Below, piece by piece: positions 18,338 to 25,669 of a DNA stretch of 64,000 nucleotides. The first letter of the stretch is position 1, and every line of letters begins with the position of its first letter. A program made the position numbers and the translations under genes. Under the pieces are notes generated by a model. That model saw only the letters and a list, made by a program, of their open reading frames with translations, was not told the origin of the DNA and did no database searches. The stretch lies in the NCBI RefSeq assembly GCF_053078305.1, contig NZ_CP166879.1, one strand, 5' to 3'.

Positions 18338-19465
18338 TTGAATTACCAAATGATTACCACGGACGATGCGCTGGCTTCTTTGTGTGAAGCCGTCCGTGCC
18401 TTTCCGGCGATAGCCCTGGATACTGAATTTGTTCGTACGCGCACTTATTACCCGCAGCTGGGGTTGATTCAACTTTTCGATGGCGAGCATCTGGCGCTAA
18501 TTGATCCTCTCGGGATCACCGACTGGTCACCGCTGAAAGCGATCCTGCGCGATCCGTCTATCACAAAATTTCTCCATGCAGGCAGTGAAGATCTGGAAGT
18601 GTTCCTCAATGTCTTTGGCGAATTACCACAACCCCTGATTGACACGCAAATCCTTGCTGCCTTCTGCGGACGCCCGATGTCATGGGGTTTCGCTTCCATG
18701 GTGGAAGAGTATTCCGGCGTTACGCTGGACAAGAGTGAATCGCGCACCGACTGGCTGGCCAGACCGCTGACCGAACGTCAGTGTGAATATGCAGCGGCGG
18801 ATGTCTGGTATCTGTTACCGATCACCGCCAAGCTTATGATAGAAACGGAGGCCTCCGGCTGGCTACCAGCGGCGCTGGATGAATGCCGCCTGATGCAAAT
18901 GCGTCGTCAGGAAGTCGTTGCGCCGGAAGATGCCTGGCGTGATATCACCAATGCCTGGCAATTACGCACACGCCAACTGGCCTGTCTGCAACTGTTAGCC
19001 GACTGGCGACTGCGCAAGGCGCGTGAGCGCGATCTGGCGGTGAACTTTGTCGTGCGTGAAGAGCATTTGTGGTCGGTAGCGCGTTATATGCCGGGAAGTT
19101 TAGGCGAACTGGACAGCCTGGGTTTATCCGGTAGCGAAATCCGCTTTCACGGTAAAACGCTGCTGGCGCTGGTGGAAAAAGCGCAGACATTGCCGGAAGA
19201 GGCCTTACCGCAGCCGATGCTTAACCTGATGGACATGCCGGGTTATCGTAAAGCGTTTAAAGCGATTAAGTCGCTGATTACTGACGTGAGCGAAACGCAC
19301 AAGATCAGCGCCGAATTGCTGGCATCGCGTCGGCAAATCAACCAACTGCTGAACTGGCACTGGAAACTGAAACCGCAGAACAATTTGCCGGAGCTGATTT
19401 CCGGCTGGCGTGGTGAGCTGATGGCGGAAGCATTACACAATTTATTGCAGGAATATCCGCAGTAA
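18338..19465 (+). CDS. rnd: Ribonuclease D
   Basis: 375-aa ORF with TTG start, DEDD exonuclease plus HRDC sequence. Confidence 0.93.
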   Translation: MNYQMITTDDALASLCEAVRAFPAIALDTEFVRTRTYYPQLGLIQLFDGEHLALIDPLGITDWSPLKAILRDPSITKFLHAGSEDLEVFLNVFGELPQPLIDTQILAAFCGRPMSWGFASMVEEYSGVTLDKSESRTDWLARPLTERQCEYAAADVWYLLPITAKLMIETEASGWLPAALDECRLMQMRRQEVVAPEDAWRDITNAWQLRTRQLACLQLLADWRLRKARERDLAVNFVVREEHLWSVARYMPGSLGELDSLGLSGSEIRFHGKTLLALVEKAQTLPEEALPQPMLNLMDMPGYRKAFKAIKSLITDVSETHKISAELLASRRQINQLLNWHWKLKPQNNLPELISGWRGELMAEALHNLLQEYPQ

Positions 19466-19471
19466 AATCTT

Positions 19472-19514
19472 CCGAAGCCGGACTGGGCGCGCTCAGCGCC
19501 ACATCCGGCTTCGG
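19472..19514. terminator. Inverted repeat between convergent rnd and yeaX (probable bidirectional terminator)
   Basis: CCGAAGCCGGA ... TCCGGCTTCGG arms flanking an internal GGCGCGCTCAGCGCC palindrome. Confidence 0.5.
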
Positions 19515-19518
19515 CAAA

Positions 19519-20484
19519 CTACAAATCCAACACCAGGCGTTTACCCTTCGCACGCGAACAACAGATCAACATACTTTGCTGGCTGGCACGCTCTTCATCG
19601 CTAAAATACTGATCCCGATGGTCAGCTTCACCTTCCAGTATTGCCGTTTCGCAGGTTCCGCATACCCCTTCACGACATAAACATTCCACTTTCGCGGCTT
19701 TATTATTTTCAATAACCTGCAAAATAGTCATCTCTTCCGGCACCACAAACTCTTTTCCGGAACGGGCAAGCACCAGGGTAAATGCATCGCCGGTTTTGTC
19801 TTCGATAGCAAATTGCTCAAAGTGCAGCGTATCGGCGGCGATGTCCAGACGCGCAGCTTCACTTCTTACCGCTTCAATTAGCGCCTCGGGGCCACAGGTA
19901 TAAACGTGTGTGCCAGGTTCGATATCCGCCAATAATCGCGCTAATTCCAGTCGTGTTCCGGTTGATGAATGATGCAAATGGACTTTCTCAGCCTGCGGAT
20001 GCTGGACTAGCTCATCACGAAATGCGCAACTTTCTGGATTTCGCGAGCAGTAATGTAGCTGCCAGTCGACGTTGCTGTGTTGCAACTCTGCCATGTGCGA
20101 CAGGAAAGGGGTGATACCAATACCGCCCGCGATAAACAGATGCTTTCTGGCTGAGGGAATTAGCGCAAACAGGTTATTAGGCGTTGAGATCGTTAACCGA
20201 TCGCCCACTTTTACCTGCTGATGCAAAAAGCGGGAACCGCCGCGCGAGTTTTCTTCCAGTCGAACGGCAATCTGATAACTAGAGGTGTTATGCGGTGAAC
20301 TCAGTAGTGAATACGCATTGCTGTACTGGTTATCACCATCGCTCATCTGCACTATGATGTGACTTCCTCCGGTGAACGCAGGCAGCGGTTTGCCATCGGT
20401 TGCCACCAGCGTGAAGCGTTTCACCTGTTCGGTAAGCGGTTCCACCTGACTCACCTGTACTTCAAACATTTGATAGTCTGACAT
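19519..20484 (-). CDS. yeaX: Carnitine monooxygenase reductase subunit (FNR-like flavoprotein with 2Fe-2S ferredoxin domain)
   Basis: 321-aa ORF; C-terminal CREGVCGTC ferredoxin cysteine motif. Confidence 0.9.
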   Translation of the reverse strand: MSDYQMFEVQVSQVEPLTEQVKRFTLVATDGKPLPAFTGGSHIIVQMSDGDNQYSNAYSLLSSPHNTSSYQIAVRLEENSRGGSRFLHQQVKVGDRLTISTPNNLFALIPSARKHLFIAGGIGITPFLSHMAELQHSNVDWQLHYCSRNPESCAFRDELVQHPQAEKVHLHHSSTGTRLELARLLADIEPGTHVYTCGPEALIEAVRSEAARLDIAADTLHFEQFAIEDKTGDAFTLVLARSGKEFVVPEEMTILQVIENNKAAKVECLCREGVCGTCETAILEGEADHRDQYFSDEERASQQSMLICCSRAKGKRLVLDL

Positions 20485-20539
20485 TGCTGTACTCCATCAA
20501 AAATCAGCCCGGCGGCGGAAAATACCGCCGCCGATGTCA

Positions 20540-21664
20540 TTAGTCCTTAAATACCTGCGCCAGCAGATTATGGAAATGGGCGATACCATGTTCGGAAATG
20601 CCGCTACCGCTACTGTCGGCCATGATGCGCCCCTGACCACGATAGCCACGCGATTTCAGCCCTTTCTGTACGCTTTCAACCAGACGTAAATCTTCCGGAC
20701 GGAACACATCGCGATACCACTCAATCAGCGATTTTTGCTCGTCGGTTAACTCTTCATTGGTGAAGTAAATATCGTAGTTTTGCAGGGTAGTTTCAGAATC
20801 CACCGGGAATTCATAAATGACCGTCATCATCCCTTTGATCGGGGTGACGTTCAGCATCGTGCACGGCCACAGCCAGAAACCGTGGAATGCCGCATCCGTA
20901 CCCTCTTCAAATTTAAACGACTGTTCGGACGGTTTGGCGAAACCGTATTGCAGCGTCCAGTTACCGTGCATGGTGTGCCAGTAACGATCAACCTGTACGG
21001 AGTCGGAGAAACCTGGATGCGCCGGACCACAGTGATAGCACTCGAGATAGTTATCGACAATGTTCTTCCAGTTGGCAGGCGTGCGGGTGGTAAAGCGGGC
21101 CGCCAGTTTCAGATCGTGGACTTCCGGGCAGGCTTCCAGCACTTTCGCGCCCAGACCGGGTAACTGATCTTCTACGCTGGTGGCGTTGGGGTCCATGTTG
21201 ATGAAGACGAATCCGGCATATTCTTCCAGACGCACCGGAACCAGTTGCGCTTTGTCGCTATCGAAATTGGCGACGTTTTCGCAGTTACGTGCATGGGCCA
21301 GGTTGCCATCGAGTTTGAATGCCCATGCGTGATATGGGCAGGTAATCACATTTTTTGCTTTTCCTTCACCGCTCAACAACTGATGACCACGGTGCGGACA
21401 CACGTTATAGAACGCGCGCAAAACCTTATCACGACCGCGTACCAGCACGATGCTTTCGCCAATGATCTCACGCGTCACATAATCATTGGCATTCGCCAGT
21501 TCGCTGCTGTGAGCGACGCAAATCCAGCTTTTGGCGAAGACGTTCTCTTTTTCGTGTTCAAAGGCGTTCTGATCGGTATAAAAACGGGCAGGAATGGTCC
21601 ACGCCTCTTGCGGGTTAGCGCAAAAATTTTCGGGTAGTACAAAGTCAGGGCTCAGATTGCTCAT
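20540..21664 (-). CDS. yeaW: Carnitine monooxygenase oxygenase subunit (Rieske-type)
   Basis: 374 aa from ATG 21662-21664; Rieske motifs CPHRGH and CPYHAW; track ORF extends 40 codons upstream. Confidence 0.9.
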   Translation of the reverse strand: MSNLSPDFVLPENFCANPQEAWTIPARFYTDQNAFEHEKENVFAKSWICVAHSSELANANDYVTREIIGESIVLVRGRDKVLRAFYNVCPHRGHQLLSGEGKAKNVITCPYHAWAFKLDGNLAHARNCENVANFDSDKAQLVPVRLEEYAGFVFINMDPNATSVEDQLPGLGAKVLEACPEVHDLKLAARFTTRTPANWKNIVDNYLECYHCGPAHPGFSDSVQVDRYWHTMHGNWTLQYGFAKPSEQSFKFEEGTDAAFHGFWLWPCTMLNVTPIKGMMTVIYEFPVDSETTLQNYDIYFTNEELTDEQKSLIEWYRDVFRPEDLRLVESVQKGLKSRGYRGQGRIMADSSGSGISEHGIAHFHNLLAQVFKD

Positions 21665-21695
21665 AGGGATACCTTTATCGTTAGGATGATGGCGC

Positions 21696-23306
21696 TCAGT
21701 TGTCGCCTTTGAATACGGTTCCCGCAGGGAGCACTGGTGTTTTTTCCAGGGCTTCAACCGGTGTCTGCGGGAGATAATGTTCAACTTGATGAGCCGGAAT
21801 GTCGGCGTAATCCTGTTTCAGCCAGCGAATAAATCCGCCAACTTTCACCAGTAAAATGACGAGGAAGGGAAGGGCTGTGAGCACGACGGTGGTTTTCATC
21901 GTTTCCAGCGAAGCACCAGTAAACAAGATGGAAAGCGGGATCAGAGTGATCACCACGCACCAGAAAAGACGCAGCCCACGGTCAGGATCGTCACCTTCCT
22001 GGAGATTACGCGTACTGGTCGCCGCCATGGTGTAGGCCACTGCATCCATATGCGAGGCAAGGAAAATAATCATCACGCCCAGGTATGCGGCGAGGAACAA
22101 TTTACCGGCTGGCAACGACATCAGAACTTGCTGTACAGCTGTTTCGCCGCCCAGTGTTTCCAGCACCTGTGGGACGTTGATTACACCATTGATAAACTGG
22201 TGAATGGCATAGCTTTCCATTACGCCGAAGAAGAACCAGCAACCGACGGTGCTGCCGAGGATCAGTCCCCAGATAACTTCTTTAATCTTACGACCGCGGG
22301 AAACGCGGGTGACAAACATTGCTACGCCAGGCGTGTATGAGATCCACCACAGCCAGTAGAAAACGGTCCAGTTGCGGGTAAATGAACCATCGCCAAGCGG
22401 ATCGGTGAATAAGCTCATTTGCAGGAAGTTTTGCGTGGTCAGGCCGATGGCATTGATGATGCTGTTGGTAATAAATTCGGTTGGGCCGACAATCAGCACC
22501 AGTAATGGCAGCAGGAACGCGCCCCAGCCAACCATTTTGCTCAGACGTTGCAAACCGTTGTTGATACCAATCCACGAGCTTAGGCAAAAAATGCCGCCGG
22601 AAAGCAGTATCACAAATGCCTGCACGGTGAAGTTATCGGGTAAACCGGTCAGCGCGGAAAGCCCACGAGTAAAGGTTGCTGCGGTGACAACAAGGGAAAT
22701 AGTCAGTGCGCCGACAGTGGCGATCAGGAACATCAAATCAACCAGTTTTCCCCATGGGCCTTGCGGGCGAACGCCGGTAATCGCGGCAATAATGCCGGAA
22801 AGACTCAGACCTTTGTTTTTACGCACATGAAAGTGATAAGCCATGATTAATGAGGCCAGCGTATAAGTTGCCCAGGCGCTGATGCCCCAGTGGAAGAAGG
22901 AGTAAGGGACGCTAAATTCGAGTGCCTGTTGTGAACGCGGTGCGATATTTAATCCAGGCGTTTGATAATAATAGGCCCATTCAGCAACCCCCCAATAAAG
23001 CGTAGAAGAACCTAAACCGGCACAAATAAACATAAACAGCCAGGAGAGCGTGCTGTATTCCGGTTTTCCTTCGCCAAGACGAATATTGCCGTATTTACTG
23101 GTGGCTAAATAAATCACCAGTCCCATTGCCAGCAAAACCAATACCTGTACGGCGGAACCTAACGTACGCGTAACAAAAGTGTATATTGCGTTGGCCGCGT
23201 CGGCCGATTGTTGTGGGAAAAGGCTTAATGCAGCTGCGATGAAAAGAATGGCCACCAGGCTGATGCTTATCAGCGGCACATCTTTTTTCTTAACATTGCT
23301 CATCAT
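21696..23306 (-). CDS. yeaV: BCCT-family (betaine/carnitine/choline) transporter YeaV
   Basis: 536-aa ORF from ATG with AGGAGA Shine-Dalgarno; N-terminus carries a hydrophobic first TM segment resembling the CaiT N-terminus. Confidence 0.85.
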
Positions 23307-23510
23307 GAGTCATCTCCTGGGCATAAAAGCCCGTCTCTGGCTTTTGCCAGTTGTAATTATTTGCAGGGTAATGAGTTGTATGTTGTGTTTAACAAATTGA
23401 TTATTTGCATGCTACATAAATTAAACAATTAAGAATACGGAAAGCCATAAAACACGAAACGGAAACAATAAAAGGTGAAATGACGCAGGTTATTAACTGC
23501 AAAGAACGAA

Positions 23511-23538
23511 TAAAAAAAACCGCGTCAGTGACGCGGTT
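23511..23538 (-). terminator. Intrinsic terminator downstream of yeaU
   Basis: Minus-strand hairpin ACCGCGTCA-ctg-ACGCGGT followed by T8-9. Confidence 0.8.
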
Positions 23539-23557
23539 CAAATAAACTGGTTTGACC

Positions 23558-24643
23558 TTAACGCAAAATAATTTTGCAAATCGCGTCGGCAACCTGTGGC
23601 GTGGTGGCACTGCCTTTCATATCCGGTGTTTTCGGCCCGTGAGCAATCACTTCTTCAATCGCTGCCAGAATACCGTTATGCGCTTGCTGGAAACGCTCAT
23701 CGCCATTGCCGAGAAAATCGAGCATCATTGCACCGGCCCAAATTGTGGCGATAGGGTTAGCAATATTTTTCCCGTAGATATCCGGCGCGGAACCGTGGAC
23801 AGGCTCGAAGAGCGACGGGAAAGTGCGTTCCGGATTCAGGTTGGCGGATGGGGCAATGCCAATGGTGCCGGTGCAGGCTGGGCCAAGATCGGAAAGGATA
23901 TCGCCAAACAAATTGGAGGCCACCACCACATCGAAGCGTTCCGGCTGCATCACAAAACGCGCGCAGAGAATATCAATATGCTGCTTGTCCCAGCGGATCT
24001 CCGGGTAATTCTCGGCCATTGCTTCCACTCGCTCATCCCAGTACGGCATGCTGATGGCTAAACCGTTTGATTTAGTGGCAGAAGTTAGCGTCTTACGTGG
24101 GCGGCTTTGCGCAAGTTCGAAGGCATAACGCAAAATGCGATCGACACCACGACGCGTAAATACCGATTCCTGAATGACGACTTCATGCTCTGTACCTTCA
24201 TTCACTCTACCGCCGAGCGAGGAATATTCGCCTTCGGTGTTTTCCCTGACCACGTAAAAATCGATGTCGCCAGGCTGTTTTCCCGCCAGCGGGCAGGGAA
24301 CGCCAGGAAAGAGACGAACCGGGCGCAGGTTGACGTACTGGTCGAATTCACGACGAAATTTCAGCAGCGAACCCCACAACGAAATATGGTCCGGAACGGT
24401 GTCCGGCCAGCCGACGGCACCAAAATAGATGGCGTCGAAACGGCTAAGTTGCTCATGCCAGTCGTCCGGCATCATTTTACCGTGATGGCTGTAATACTCG
24501 CAGCTCGCCCACTCCATTTGCTCAAAACTCAAGGCGAAGCCCCAGCGCTCAGCGGCAGCCTGTAACACGCGAATCCCTTCAGGAAGGACTTCTTTGCCAA
24601 TCCCGTCTCCCGGGATCGCAGCAATACGCATCGTTTTCATCAT
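23558..24643 (-). CDS. dmlA: D-malate/tartrate dehydrogenase (decarboxylating), isocitrate/isopropylmalate dehydrogenase family
   Basis: 361-aa ORF, recognisable YeaU/DmlA sequence. Confidence 0.92.
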   Translation of the reverse strand: MMKTMRIAAIPGDGIGKEVLPEGIRVLQAAAERWGFALSFEQMEWASCEYYSHHGKMMPDDWHEQLSRFDAIYFGAVGWPDTVPDHISLWGSLLKFRREFDQYVNLRPVRLFPGVPCPLAGKQPGDIDFYVVRENTEGEYSSLGGRVNEGTEHEVVIQESVFTRRGVDRILRYAFELAQSRPRKTLTSATKSNGLAISMPYWDERVEAMAENYPEIRWDKQHIDILCARFVMQPERFDVVVASNLFGDILSDLGPACTGTIGIAPSANLNPERTFPSLFEPVHGSAPDIYGKNIANPIATIWAGAMMLDFLGNGDERFQQAHNGILAAIEEVIAHGPKTPDMKGSATTPQVADAICKIILR

Positions 24644-24745
24644 TGGGTTCTCACTTCCTGACCATCAAAATTGACAACATCACCATCCTATAATTGACTG
24701 AAAAGGAATTAATCCCCGTAACTGGTGAAACATAAAACACGAATC

Positions 24746-25669
24746 ATGAATAATTTACCGCTGCTGAATGATTTGCGCGTCTTTATGCTGGTGGCTCGCC
24801 GGGCTGGTTTTGCCGCCGTGGCGGAAGAACTGGGCGTTTCACCGGCGTTCGTCAGCAAGCGCATCGCCTTGCTGGAGCAAACGCTAAACGTGGTGTTGTT
24901 ACACCGCACCACCCGCCGCGTCACCATTACCGAAGAAGGAGAGCGGATTTATGAATGGGCGCAGCGGATTTTGCAGGATGTCGGTCAGATGATGGACGAA
25001 CTTTCTGACGTGCGTCAGGTGCCACAGGGGATGCTGCGTATTATCAGCAGCTTTGGTTTTGGACGACAGGTGGTGGCTCCGGCGTTATCAGCGCTGGCGA
25101 AGGCGTATCCGCAACTGGAATTACGTTTTGATGTGGAAGACCGGCTGGTCGATTTGGTCAATGAAGGTGTCGATCTCGATATTCGCATTGGCGATGACAT
25201 CGCCCCTAATTTAATCGCCCGCAAACTGGCGACCAATTACCGCATTCTCTGCGCGTCGCCGGAATTTATTGCGCAACATGGCGCGCCGAAACATTTAACC
25301 GATCTTTCTGCATTGCCGTGCCTGGTCATTAAAGAGCGCGATCATCCTTTTGGTGTCTGGCAATTACGCAATAAAGAAGGCCACCATGCGATTAAAGTCA
25401 CCGGCCCACTGTCGTCTAATCATGGAGAAATTGTCCATCAGTGGTGTCTCGATGGGCAGGGGATTGCTCTGCGTTCCTGGTGGGATGTTAGCGAAAACAT
25501 TGCCAGTGGTCATTTAGTGCAAGTGCTACCGGAATATTACCAGCCAGCGAACGTCTGGGCCGTTTATGTTTCAAGGCTGGCGACGTCAGCGAAAGTGCGG
25601 ATAACGGTAGAATTTTTACGCCAGTATTTTGCCGAGCACTACCCGAATTTTTCACTGGAGCATGCCTGA
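24746..25669 (+). CDS. dmlR: LysR-family transcriptional regulator DmlR (YeaT)
   Basis: 307 aa from ATG 24746, N-terminal HTH; divergent from dmlA. Confidence 0.9.
   Translation: MNNLPLLNDLRVFMLVARRAGFAAVAEELGVSPAFVSKRIALLEQTLNVVLLHRTTRRVTITEEGERIYEWAQRILQDVGQMMDELSDVRQVPQGMLRIISSFGFGRQVVAPALSALAKAYPQLELRFDVEDRLVDLVNEGVDLDIRIGDDIAPNLIARKLATNYRILCASPEFIAQHGAPKHLTDLSALPCLVIKERDHPFGVWQLRNKEGHHAIKVTGPLSSNHGEIVHQWCLDGQGIALRSWWDVSENIASGHLVQVLPEYYQPANVWAVYVSRLATSAKVRITVEFLRQYFAEHYPNFSLEHA

Follow-up and report, generated by a model that had tools for sequence, protein, structure and literature searches.

A conserved stem-loop between yeaW and yeaX in the Escherichia coli carnitine monooxygenase operon, probably inherited from an msadh–cntB junction

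A 64,000-nt stretch of contig NZ_CP166879.1 (assembly GCF_053078305.1; hereafter the window, numbered from its first letter) carries the genes yeaV, yeaW and yeaX, with a GC-rich hairpin between the latter two. All three lie on the minus strand in the order transporter, oxygenase, reductase, and their outer open reading frame limits, 19519 and 23306, match exactly those given in a preliminary description made from the sequence alone. The 4.1-kb region is up to 99.6% identical to E. coli chromosomes, and RefSeq names its products BCCT family transporter YeaV and carnitine monooxygenase subunits YeaW and YeaX. The operon is the already known E. coli YeaVWX/CntAB carnitine monooxygenase system. 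What is new here is small: the origin of the yeaW–yeaX spacer at a junction between the malic-semialdehyde dehydrogenase gene msadh and cntB, its retention through independent deletions, and a quantified constraint upon it. The features on which the argument turns are these:

21696–23306, minus strand: yeaV, a full-length BCCT transporter of 536 amino acids (open reading frame, Pfam BCCT, NCBIfam).
21665–21695, minus strand: the 31-nt yeaV–yeaW spacer, read from the sequence, in which a scan for hairpins and promoter-like sites was negative.
20540–21664, minus strand: yeaW (cntA), the Rieske/mononuclear-iron oxygenase subunit of carnitine monooxygenase, 374 amino acids (Pfam, PDB match, K-12 identity).
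20485–20539, minus strand: the 55-nt yeaW–yeaX spacer, by alignment homologous to the msadh–cntB spacer of cntA–msadh–cntB clusters.
20509–20534, minus strand: a stem-loop of nine G-C pairs (20510–20518 with 20525–20533) and a closing U·G pair, with the loop UAUUUU at 20519–20524.
20499–20503, minus strand: a run of five U (U5) in the mRNA, beginning 5 nt past the 10-bp stem.
20482–20495, minus strand: the yeaX Shine-Dalgarno sequence GGAG (20492–20495) and AUG (20482–20484), invariant in the spacer alignment.
19519–20484, minus strand: yeaX (cntB), the PDR/VanB-type reductase subunit with flavin mononucleotide (FMN), NADH and plant-type 2Fe-2S domains, 321 amino acids (Pfam, Cys ligands).

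The mechanically called yeaW reading frame reaches back to a TTG at 21784 inside yeaV; annotation and conservation both put the start codon at ATG 21664. YeaW matches its K-12 counterpart at every residue (100% identity), and YeaX is identical at 317 of 321 residues (four amino-acid differences). The K-12 YeaW/YeaX carnitine monooxygenase reportedly goes back to Koeth et al. in 2014. In vitro, the K-12 pair acts as a two-component Rieske carnitine monooxygenase that forms trimethylamine (TMA), and all cofactor ligands and docking residues named in that study are found in the window proteins (PMC9508527). YeaW has the Pfam architecture Rieske (9.7e-24) plus Ring_hydroxyl_A; its Rieske 2Fe-2S ligands C89, H91, C109 and H112 follow the CXH...CXXH pattern and lie within the motifs CPHRGH (from residue 89) and CPYHAW (from residue 109), both of which the preliminary description had pointed out. 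The mononuclear iron ligands H211, H216 and D325 and the bridging E208 are also present (residues as in PMC9508527); glutamate in place of aspartate at the bridge is a signature noted before (PMC5433236). YeaW further matches the Acinetobacter baumannii CntA structures 6Y8J and 6Y9D over residues 4–371 (E = 9e-197). YeaX combines FAD_binding_6, NAD_binding_1 and Fer2 domains and retains Cys270, Cys275, Cys278 and Cys308, the third motif of the preliminary description, CREGVCGTC, starting at residue 270. YeaW and YeaX both stay below the cutoff of every NCBIfam equivalog model (best scores: GbcA, 154 bits against a cutoff of 670, and PRK10684, 125 bits against 383), and their identity is therefore based on the PDB match, the K-12 identity and the RefSeq names.

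The assignment of these genes to a carnitine-to-TMA module, made earlier from motifs and gene order, agrees with the RefSeq names, the K-12 identity, the complete ligand set and the published biochemistry (PMC9508527), and carnitine-dependent TMA formation, published for the identical K-12 YeaW, would be expected of the window proteins. By catalytic steps already published for proteins of identical or nearly identical sequence (PMC9508527), the Rieske cluster and mononuclear iron of YeaW would activate O2 and split the C–N bond to give trimethylamine and malic semialdehyde. YeaV, as a BCCT family member, is the presumed importer of L-carnitine or a related quaternary amine. It matches Pfam BCCT PF02028 (1.9e-121) and NCBIfam PRK09950 (1033 bits against a cutoff of 647, covering 1–536 of 536 residues), is 54% identical to the product of the BCCT gene of Acinetobacter carnitine clusters, and scores 346 against the CaiT model, under the cutoff of 541. 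YeaV is listed as uncharacterised, and the sole hint of its substrate comes from untargeted metabolomics (PMC10971958). Within Escherichia, YeaX diverges much faster than YeaW, with identities to the window proteins of 86–95% versus 98–100% (loci L003–L006), and one sampled E. coli genome (L090) carries a frameshifted yeaX.

The preliminary description had also placed a GC hairpin between yeaW and yeaX, at 20511–20532. The hairpin is real, but these limits fall one base short on each side: the perfect 9-bp all-G/C arms, CGGCGGCGG and CCGCCGCCG, span 20510–20533. On the mRNA strand the element reads CGGCGGCGG-UAUUUU-CCGCCGCCG, and the flanking U·G pair lengthens the stem to 10 bp. Folding, which that description had proposed, yields a stem-loop of −21.7 kcal/mol, against only −15.1 kcal/mol for the terminator of the neighbouring gene dmlA. 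The element lies 5–6 nt past the yeaW stop codon and 27 nt ahead of the yeaX AUG, and the stem is followed by GCUGAUUUUU, then the Shine-Dalgarno sequence, then the start codon. In its 91-nt spacer context the fold reaches −32.2 kcal/mol (z = −3.2), a value that none of 200 shuffles equalled. Thirteen distinct perfect hairpins of at least 9 bp occur across the window, against a mean of 1.9 in 30 dinucleotide-preserving shuffles, and the yeaW–yeaX hairpin is the sole one among them with all-G/C arms. A scan of Rfam 15 at E ≤ 1 gave no match at gathering score for the hairpin or for region 19000–25000; two sub-threshold matches, anti-hemB (on the dmlA terminator) and isrK (19.8 bits, plus strand), were set aside as chance level.

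The spacer was compared across 16 Escherichia and Citrobacter sequences. Pairing holds in 94% of the cells of the 9-bp helix, and five of its nine pairs have changed on both sides; none of 500 column shuffles reached the observed covariation and pairing, and slid controls were 31–51% paired. Wobble variants are asymmetric, with 13 G·U cells versus 2 A·C cells, which points to a structure in the sense RNA and not in the DNA or in antisense RNA. The U-run (columns 70–73) is invariant in all 16 spacers. Between the window and Escherichia albertii, 3 of the 55 spacer positions differ, all of them in the 6-nt loop, so that none of the 49 non-loop positions has changed; at third codon positions, yeaW is 69% and yeaX 62% identical (31–38% diverged). 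Because the stem covaries and the E. albertii differences are confined to the loop, the hairpin is, as far as sequence comparison can tell, a selected element of the sense-strand RNA.

An allele survey of 5426 complete E. coli genomes found the spacer in 4371. The K-12 allele occurs exactly in 3781 of these; it differs from the window allele by one C-to-U change that converts a G-C pair to G·U, whereas the window hairpin has nine G-C pairs. The window allele is exact in 420 genomes and other versions make up the remaining 170. The two main alleles together account for 96% of E. coli spacers, and pairing is kept in both. One sampled genome (L091) carries a disruptive substitution, G to A, in the 5' arm.

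These comparisons bear on the suggestion that the element acts in the DNA, either as a palindromic protein-binding site or as a copy of a dispersed repeat such as the repetitive extragenic palindrome (REP). A perfect GC palindrome with a 6-bp centre is what such a site might look like. However, arm sequence varies between genera with complementarity preserved, and the G·U variants become A·C mismatches on the other strand, leaving the palindrome half-sites non-identical. Nor is any Rfam family matched. The hairpin is moreover single-copy in E. coli (median one place per genome, highest two), which excludes a dispersed repeat of the REP or bacterial interspersed mosaic element (BIME) type. We give a DNA-level element almost no credence.

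The origin of the spacer was traced in 80 loci that encode relatives of YeaW, with each species represented by a single genome. In most of them a gene of ~1.45 kb, msadh, stands between cntA and cntB; the best PDB match of the Citrobacter msadh product is the A. baumannii malic-semialdehyde dehydrogenase (MSA-DH) 8S33, at 710 bits, with E. coli GabD 3JZ4 at 704 bits. A tblastn search of the 64-kb window with the Citrobacter MSA-DH found no homologue at 1e-3, and no gene lies between yeaW and yeaX. The variable context of cntA clusters and the possible absence of msadh had been raised in earlier literature. The E. coli yeaW–yeaX spacer aligns to Citrobacter msadh–cntB spacers, including the block GGGCTGATTTTT..GGAGT..GC.ATGTC, with the pattern TGACAT–stem-loop–GGGCTGATTTTTGATGGAGTACAGCAATGTC in E. 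coli versus TGACAGGT–stem-loop–CTGATTTTTAAGGGAGTGCTGCGATGTC in Citrobacter R56; it gave no alignment to the 18-nt Citrobacter cntA–msadh spacer. The absence of msadh, the inheritance of the hairpin from the msadh–cntB junction and the continuation of the cluster into dmlA and dmlR had all been passed over in the preliminary description.

A second group without msadh comprises Citrobacter portucalensis, C. braakii, C. youngae ATCC 29220 and others (msadh-absent loci L012–L015 and L080, compared with the msadh-present loci L007–L011 and L016–L018). These Citrobacter retain a scar, CCAGAGGCTGTAA, which corresponds to the stop codon of msadh and the three codons before it, right after the cntA stop and followed by the hairpin region. 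Neighbour-joining trees were made for yeaV, yeaW, yeaX and dmlA, singly and concatenated; built without bootstrap and with the four genes in agreement, they nest the msadh-less Citrobacter within an msadh-bearing Citrobacter clade, apart from Escherichia. On this evidence msadh has been lost on at least two separate occasions, by Escherichia and by a subclade of Citrobacter. The hairpin, the U-run and the Shine-Dalgarno block are retained through both deletions. The gene has also been lost in Yersinia, Serratia, some Xenorhabdus and one Pseudomonas, and C. braakii ATCC 51113 holds both cluster types (L013, L016).

Inheritance from the msadh–cntB junction would also suit a neutral reading, in which the hairpin is a relic of the msadh deletion or a former msadh terminator and selection acts on the ribosome-binding site alone; Xenorhabdus, Serratia and the A. 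baumannii group manage with short or unstructured spacers ahead of cntB. Such a relic would not be expected to show covarying stem pairs, tolerance of G·U, and substitutions between Escherichia species confined to the loop, with 0 of 49 non-loop positions differing from E. albertii against ~35% third-position divergence, nor to survive two independent deletions. The chance that the hairpin is neutral is in our estimate slight.

If the element is selected as RNA, its resemblance to a terminator has to be considered. The terminator scan rated it terminator-like, with nine G-C pairs among ten and the tail GCTGATTTTT, and like a canonical Rho-independent terminator it has a GC-rich stem of 9–10 bp, a 6-nt loop and a downstream U5. 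It differs in that the U-run starts 5 nt beyond the stem, a position that passes the lenient scan, and in that it stands 27 nt ahead of an essential downstream cistron. One could suppose that it is an efficient intrinsic terminator which ends the yeaV–yeaW transcript and leaves yeaX to a promoter of its own. Besides the scan score, the U-run abuts the stem in L016 and L018 (it is offset in E. coli), and in Paraburkholderia a stem and T-run precede a 70–170-nt gap before cntB with room for a promoter. In E. coli, however, just 27 nt separate the stem from the AUG, Shine-Dalgarno sequence included, the U-run is offset, and no promoter-like site was scored in the yeaW 3' end; a promoter inside yeaW would in any case read through the same hairpin. 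YeaX is needed for activity (PMC9508527), and efficient termination would therefore disable the enzyme. We consider an efficient terminator very unlikely.

A further alternative places control at translation. The hairpin flanks can pair with the yeaX start region, through UGACAU:AUGUCA or CUGAU:GUCAG, such that yeaX initiation might depend on ribosomes that finish yeaW and unfold the structure, that is, on translational coupling. In the minimum-energy fold of the E. coli sequence, UGACAU is paired with AUGUCA and the Shine-Dalgarno sequence is hidden (unpaired probability 0.07), and RNAalifold returns a 5-bp helix, CUGAU:GUCAG, that is 89.5% paired and closes over the U-run, Shine-Dalgarno sequence and AUG. 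One pair of this helix involves the codon-2 wobble base and shows covariation, being U-A in Escherichia and A-U in six Citrobacter sequences, and the yeaW stop lies just 5–6 nt from the stem. Yet the CUGAU:GUCAG helix has merely 5 bp and includes three U·U cells (L007, L008, L010), and the hairpin that sequesters the Shine-Dalgarno sequence in E. coli is absent from Citrobacter conservation. A modelled terminating ribosome lifts Shine-Dalgarno accessibility from 0.07 to 0.22 and leaves the AUG closed, and the ancestral upstream gene was msadh, not cntA. Both helices are weak and conserved only in part; translational coupling to yeaW, though a serious rival, is in our judgement unlikely. A sequestering mini-hairpin of GCUGAUUUU with GGAGU.CAGC, present in the E. 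coli fold, was dropped as not conserved in Citrobacter. For the outer helix UGACAU:AUGUCA, GACA:UGUC alone is common to most Citrobacter, with no informative variation, and it is to be read as a possibility only.

We therefore return to the single-transcript reading, which we hold to be moderately probable: in this known carnitine monooxygenase operon, a hairpin inherited from the msadh–cntB junction and kept by purifying selection lowers, or separately tunes, yeaX relative to yeaV–yeaW on one mRNA. That it may set the ratio of yeaW to yeaX expression, as the preliminary description had supposed, is plausible on the evidence of the sequence. The gene yeaX would be co-transcribed with yeaV–yeaW, and the hairpin would create no separate transcription unit, because the 31-nt yeaV–yeaW gap is free of signals, there is no promoter room past the hairpin, and the promoter scan found no site in the 27 nt between hairpin and yeaX and scored none in the yeaW 3' end.

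Two sub-mechanisms could produce such tuning. The hairpin might be a leaky terminator, as suggested by the scan and by the abutting U-run of L016 and L018. Alternatively, it might form a barrier at a 3' end, shielding the upstream yeaVW mRNA from 3' exonucleases after cleavage in the adjacent GAUUUUU tract; GA/UUUUU beside a stem resembles RNase E sites. A leaky terminator and a processing or stability barrier seem to fit equally well.

Several points weigh against this reading. The Term-seq table of PMC7815308 lists no RNA 3' end at the yeaW–yeaX spacer and only an antisense one inside yeaX, and PMC12207403 has no entry for these genes; the Term-seq absence is weak negative evidence, because laboratory cultures express the operon poorly and the K-12 yeaV promoter region is damaged. 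The start of the U-run 5 nt past the stem is non-canonical for an intrinsic terminator. Pseudomonas stems ahead of cntB lack any U-run, and no single mechanism suits every lineage. YeaX was in threefold excess over YeaW in the published in vitro assays (PMC9508527), which does not suggest a low need for reductase. The covariation set comes from few clades, and shuffle controls overstate significance for related sequences. Finally, spacer conservation could partly reflect the yeaX ribosome-binding region alone.

The hairpin is an element of an ordinary kind, an intercistronic stem-loop or leaky terminator, which departs from strict terminators in the position of its U-tract and from REP elements in its copy number. 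Intercistronic stem-loops tune differential operon expression in the malEFG REP, Rhodobacter puf and E. coli pap systems. The yeaW–yeaX element resembles these in being a stable GC hairpin between cistrons, ahead of a cistron whose expression is expected to differ, with conserved structure and variable sequence. It differs in being single-copy and not a REP, and in its U-run and pairing with the start region.

Stems recur in this gene family. Stable stem-loops of unrelated sequence stand directly ahead of cntB in Yersinia, Pseudomonas, Paraburkholderia and Neisseriaceae, and stems follow cntA in Acinetobacter and Pseudomonas; the feature common to these lineages is the stem, not the U-tract. 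A bolder proposal would be that the stem-loop ahead of cntB/yeaX is a conserved translation-sensitive attenuator, derived from the msadh–cntB junction and retained through at least two deletions, that sets reductase to oxygenase output, with the analogous unrelated stems of Pseudomonas, Paraburkholderia, Yersinia and Neisseriaceae doing the same job. We regard this as rather doubtful; if true, an attenuator stem would be a general design rule for the two-component cntAB oxygenase.

Around the operon, four further features were recorded:

19472–19514: a long GC hairpin where rnd and yeaX converge (−35.5 kcal/mol), followed by GAUUUU on the yeaX strand.
23307–23557, minus strand: the dmlA–yeaV spacer, with the dmlA terminator, conserved blocks and a candidate weak promoter (scan and sequence reading).
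23558–24643, minus strand: dmlA, a decarboxylating D-malate dehydrogenase (annotation).
24725–25669, plus strand: dmlR, a LysR-type regulator divergent from dmlA (limits of the listed open reading frame; RefSeq begins the gene 21 nt further downstream).

The hairpin at 19472–19514 is the likely end of the operon. On the opposite strand, the Term-seq table (PMC7815308) places an RNA 3' end antisense to yeaX at about window position 19657, plus strand (K-12 coordinate 1886672), ~190 nt beyond the rnd stop codon. The position of this antisense 3' end suggests that rnd transcripts run through the convergent hairpin into yeaX.

At the other end, dmlR, dmlA, yeaV, yeaW and yeaX are contiguous (19519–25669). 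The same five genes—dmlR, dmlA, a BCCT gene, cntA and cntB—form a cluster in Enterobacteriaceae, Pseudomonas, Acinetobacter and others; in the three groups just named and in Vitreoscilla, dmlA adjoins the BCCT gene, cntA and cntB, and most of the loci with a long enough flank have a divergent dmlR homologue beside the cluster. The functional unit extends to dmlA and dmlR. The only operon-less genome examined, E. coli MS20659 (L083, 5067–5608), fits this view, since most of dmlA and dmlR is also gone there, leaving fragments of 156 nt and 168 nt. An A. baumannii cluster, carR / mdh–bcct–..–cntA–msadh–cntB, is reportedly due to Zhu et al. in 2014. In A. baumannii, L-carnitine is converted to TMA and malic semialdehyde, the latter by MSA-DH to D-malate, and D-malate by D-malate dehydrogenase to pyruvate (PMC11353897). 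By analogy with this pathway, DmlA would be the last enzyme of the carnitine-to-pyruvate route.

The window cluster corresponds to an msadh-less version of the A. baumannii carnitine-to-pyruvate cluster. Both have a LysR regulator, a D-malate dehydrogenase, a BCCT transporter, CntA and CntB, and Acinetobacter loci are 72–74% (YeaW), 49–53% (YeaX), 69–72% (DmlA) and 53–58% (YeaV) identical to the window proteins. They differ in the absence of msadh between cntA and cntB in the window, in gene order, and in the strong terminator that E. coli has between dmlA and yeaV. In Acinetobacter (L028–L036, L050–L065; 2865–4000), the ~1.1-kb gap between the BCCT gene and cntA holds an extra gene with no equivalent in the E. 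coli cluster.

The dmlA terminator (23517–23539, minus strand; AACCGCGTCACTGACGCGGTT then a T run) is of near-invariant sequence from Escherichia to Citrobacter. Because it lies between dmlA and yeaV, dmlA and yeaVWX, although they serve one pathway, are probably transcribed separately. Several blocks within 23307–23516 are invariant across Escherichia and Citrobacter (among them TTATT.TTTCCGTT.CGTGTTTTAT, ATTGTTTAATT.A.G and AAATAAT) and might include binding sites for DmlR or another activator as well as a weak promoter. A sigma-70 scan found no minus-strand promoter ahead of yeaV; a candidate read from the conserved blocks, TTGTTT (23423–23428) and AATAAT (23400–23405) separated by 17 nt, falls under the scan threshold. 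A small conserved hairpin, CGGGC–loop–GCCC, abuts the yeaV Shine-Dalgarno sequence. No literature linking yeaV to DmlR was found.

Part of this upstream region is missing from some laboratory strains. A 224-bp segment, window 23179–23402, is absent from K-12 MG1655, B and DH5alpha (K-12 locus L085, junction 1152/1153); the deletion takes yeaV codons 1–43, the ribosome-binding site, the 5' untranslated region and part of the candidate −10 element. The result is annotated as a 481-aa TTG-start open reading frame in K-12 and as a pseudogene by the Prokaryotic Genome Annotation Pipeline (PGAP) in B and DH5alpha. The window, which shares with K-12 its gene order, the identities of YeaW and YeaX, and the ligands and docking residues described above, differs from it in having a full-length 536-aa yeaV with its upstream region. 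The segment is kept in 2930 of the 4371 operon-bearing genomes, while ~1440 (~27% of the 5426 complete E. coli genomes) appear to carry the deletion, and the yeaVWX operon is missing altogether from ~1050 of the 5426 (~19%).

Conversion of carnitine to TMA by gut bacteria feeds trimethylamine N-oxide (TMAO), a cardiovascular risk marker, a link that is already established. The presence of cntA alone overstates the capability of E. coli, given that msadh is absent, ~27% of genomes have the yeaV deletion and ~19% lack the operon. As K-12 carries the 224-bp deletion, published work on K-12 yeaV concerns a truncated gene, and K-12 yeaV clones in transporter studies represent the truncated allele. 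Expression of yeaWX from native DNA likewise brings with it the selected −21.7 kcal/mol hairpin in the 55-nt spacer, which probably limits expression of the reductase.

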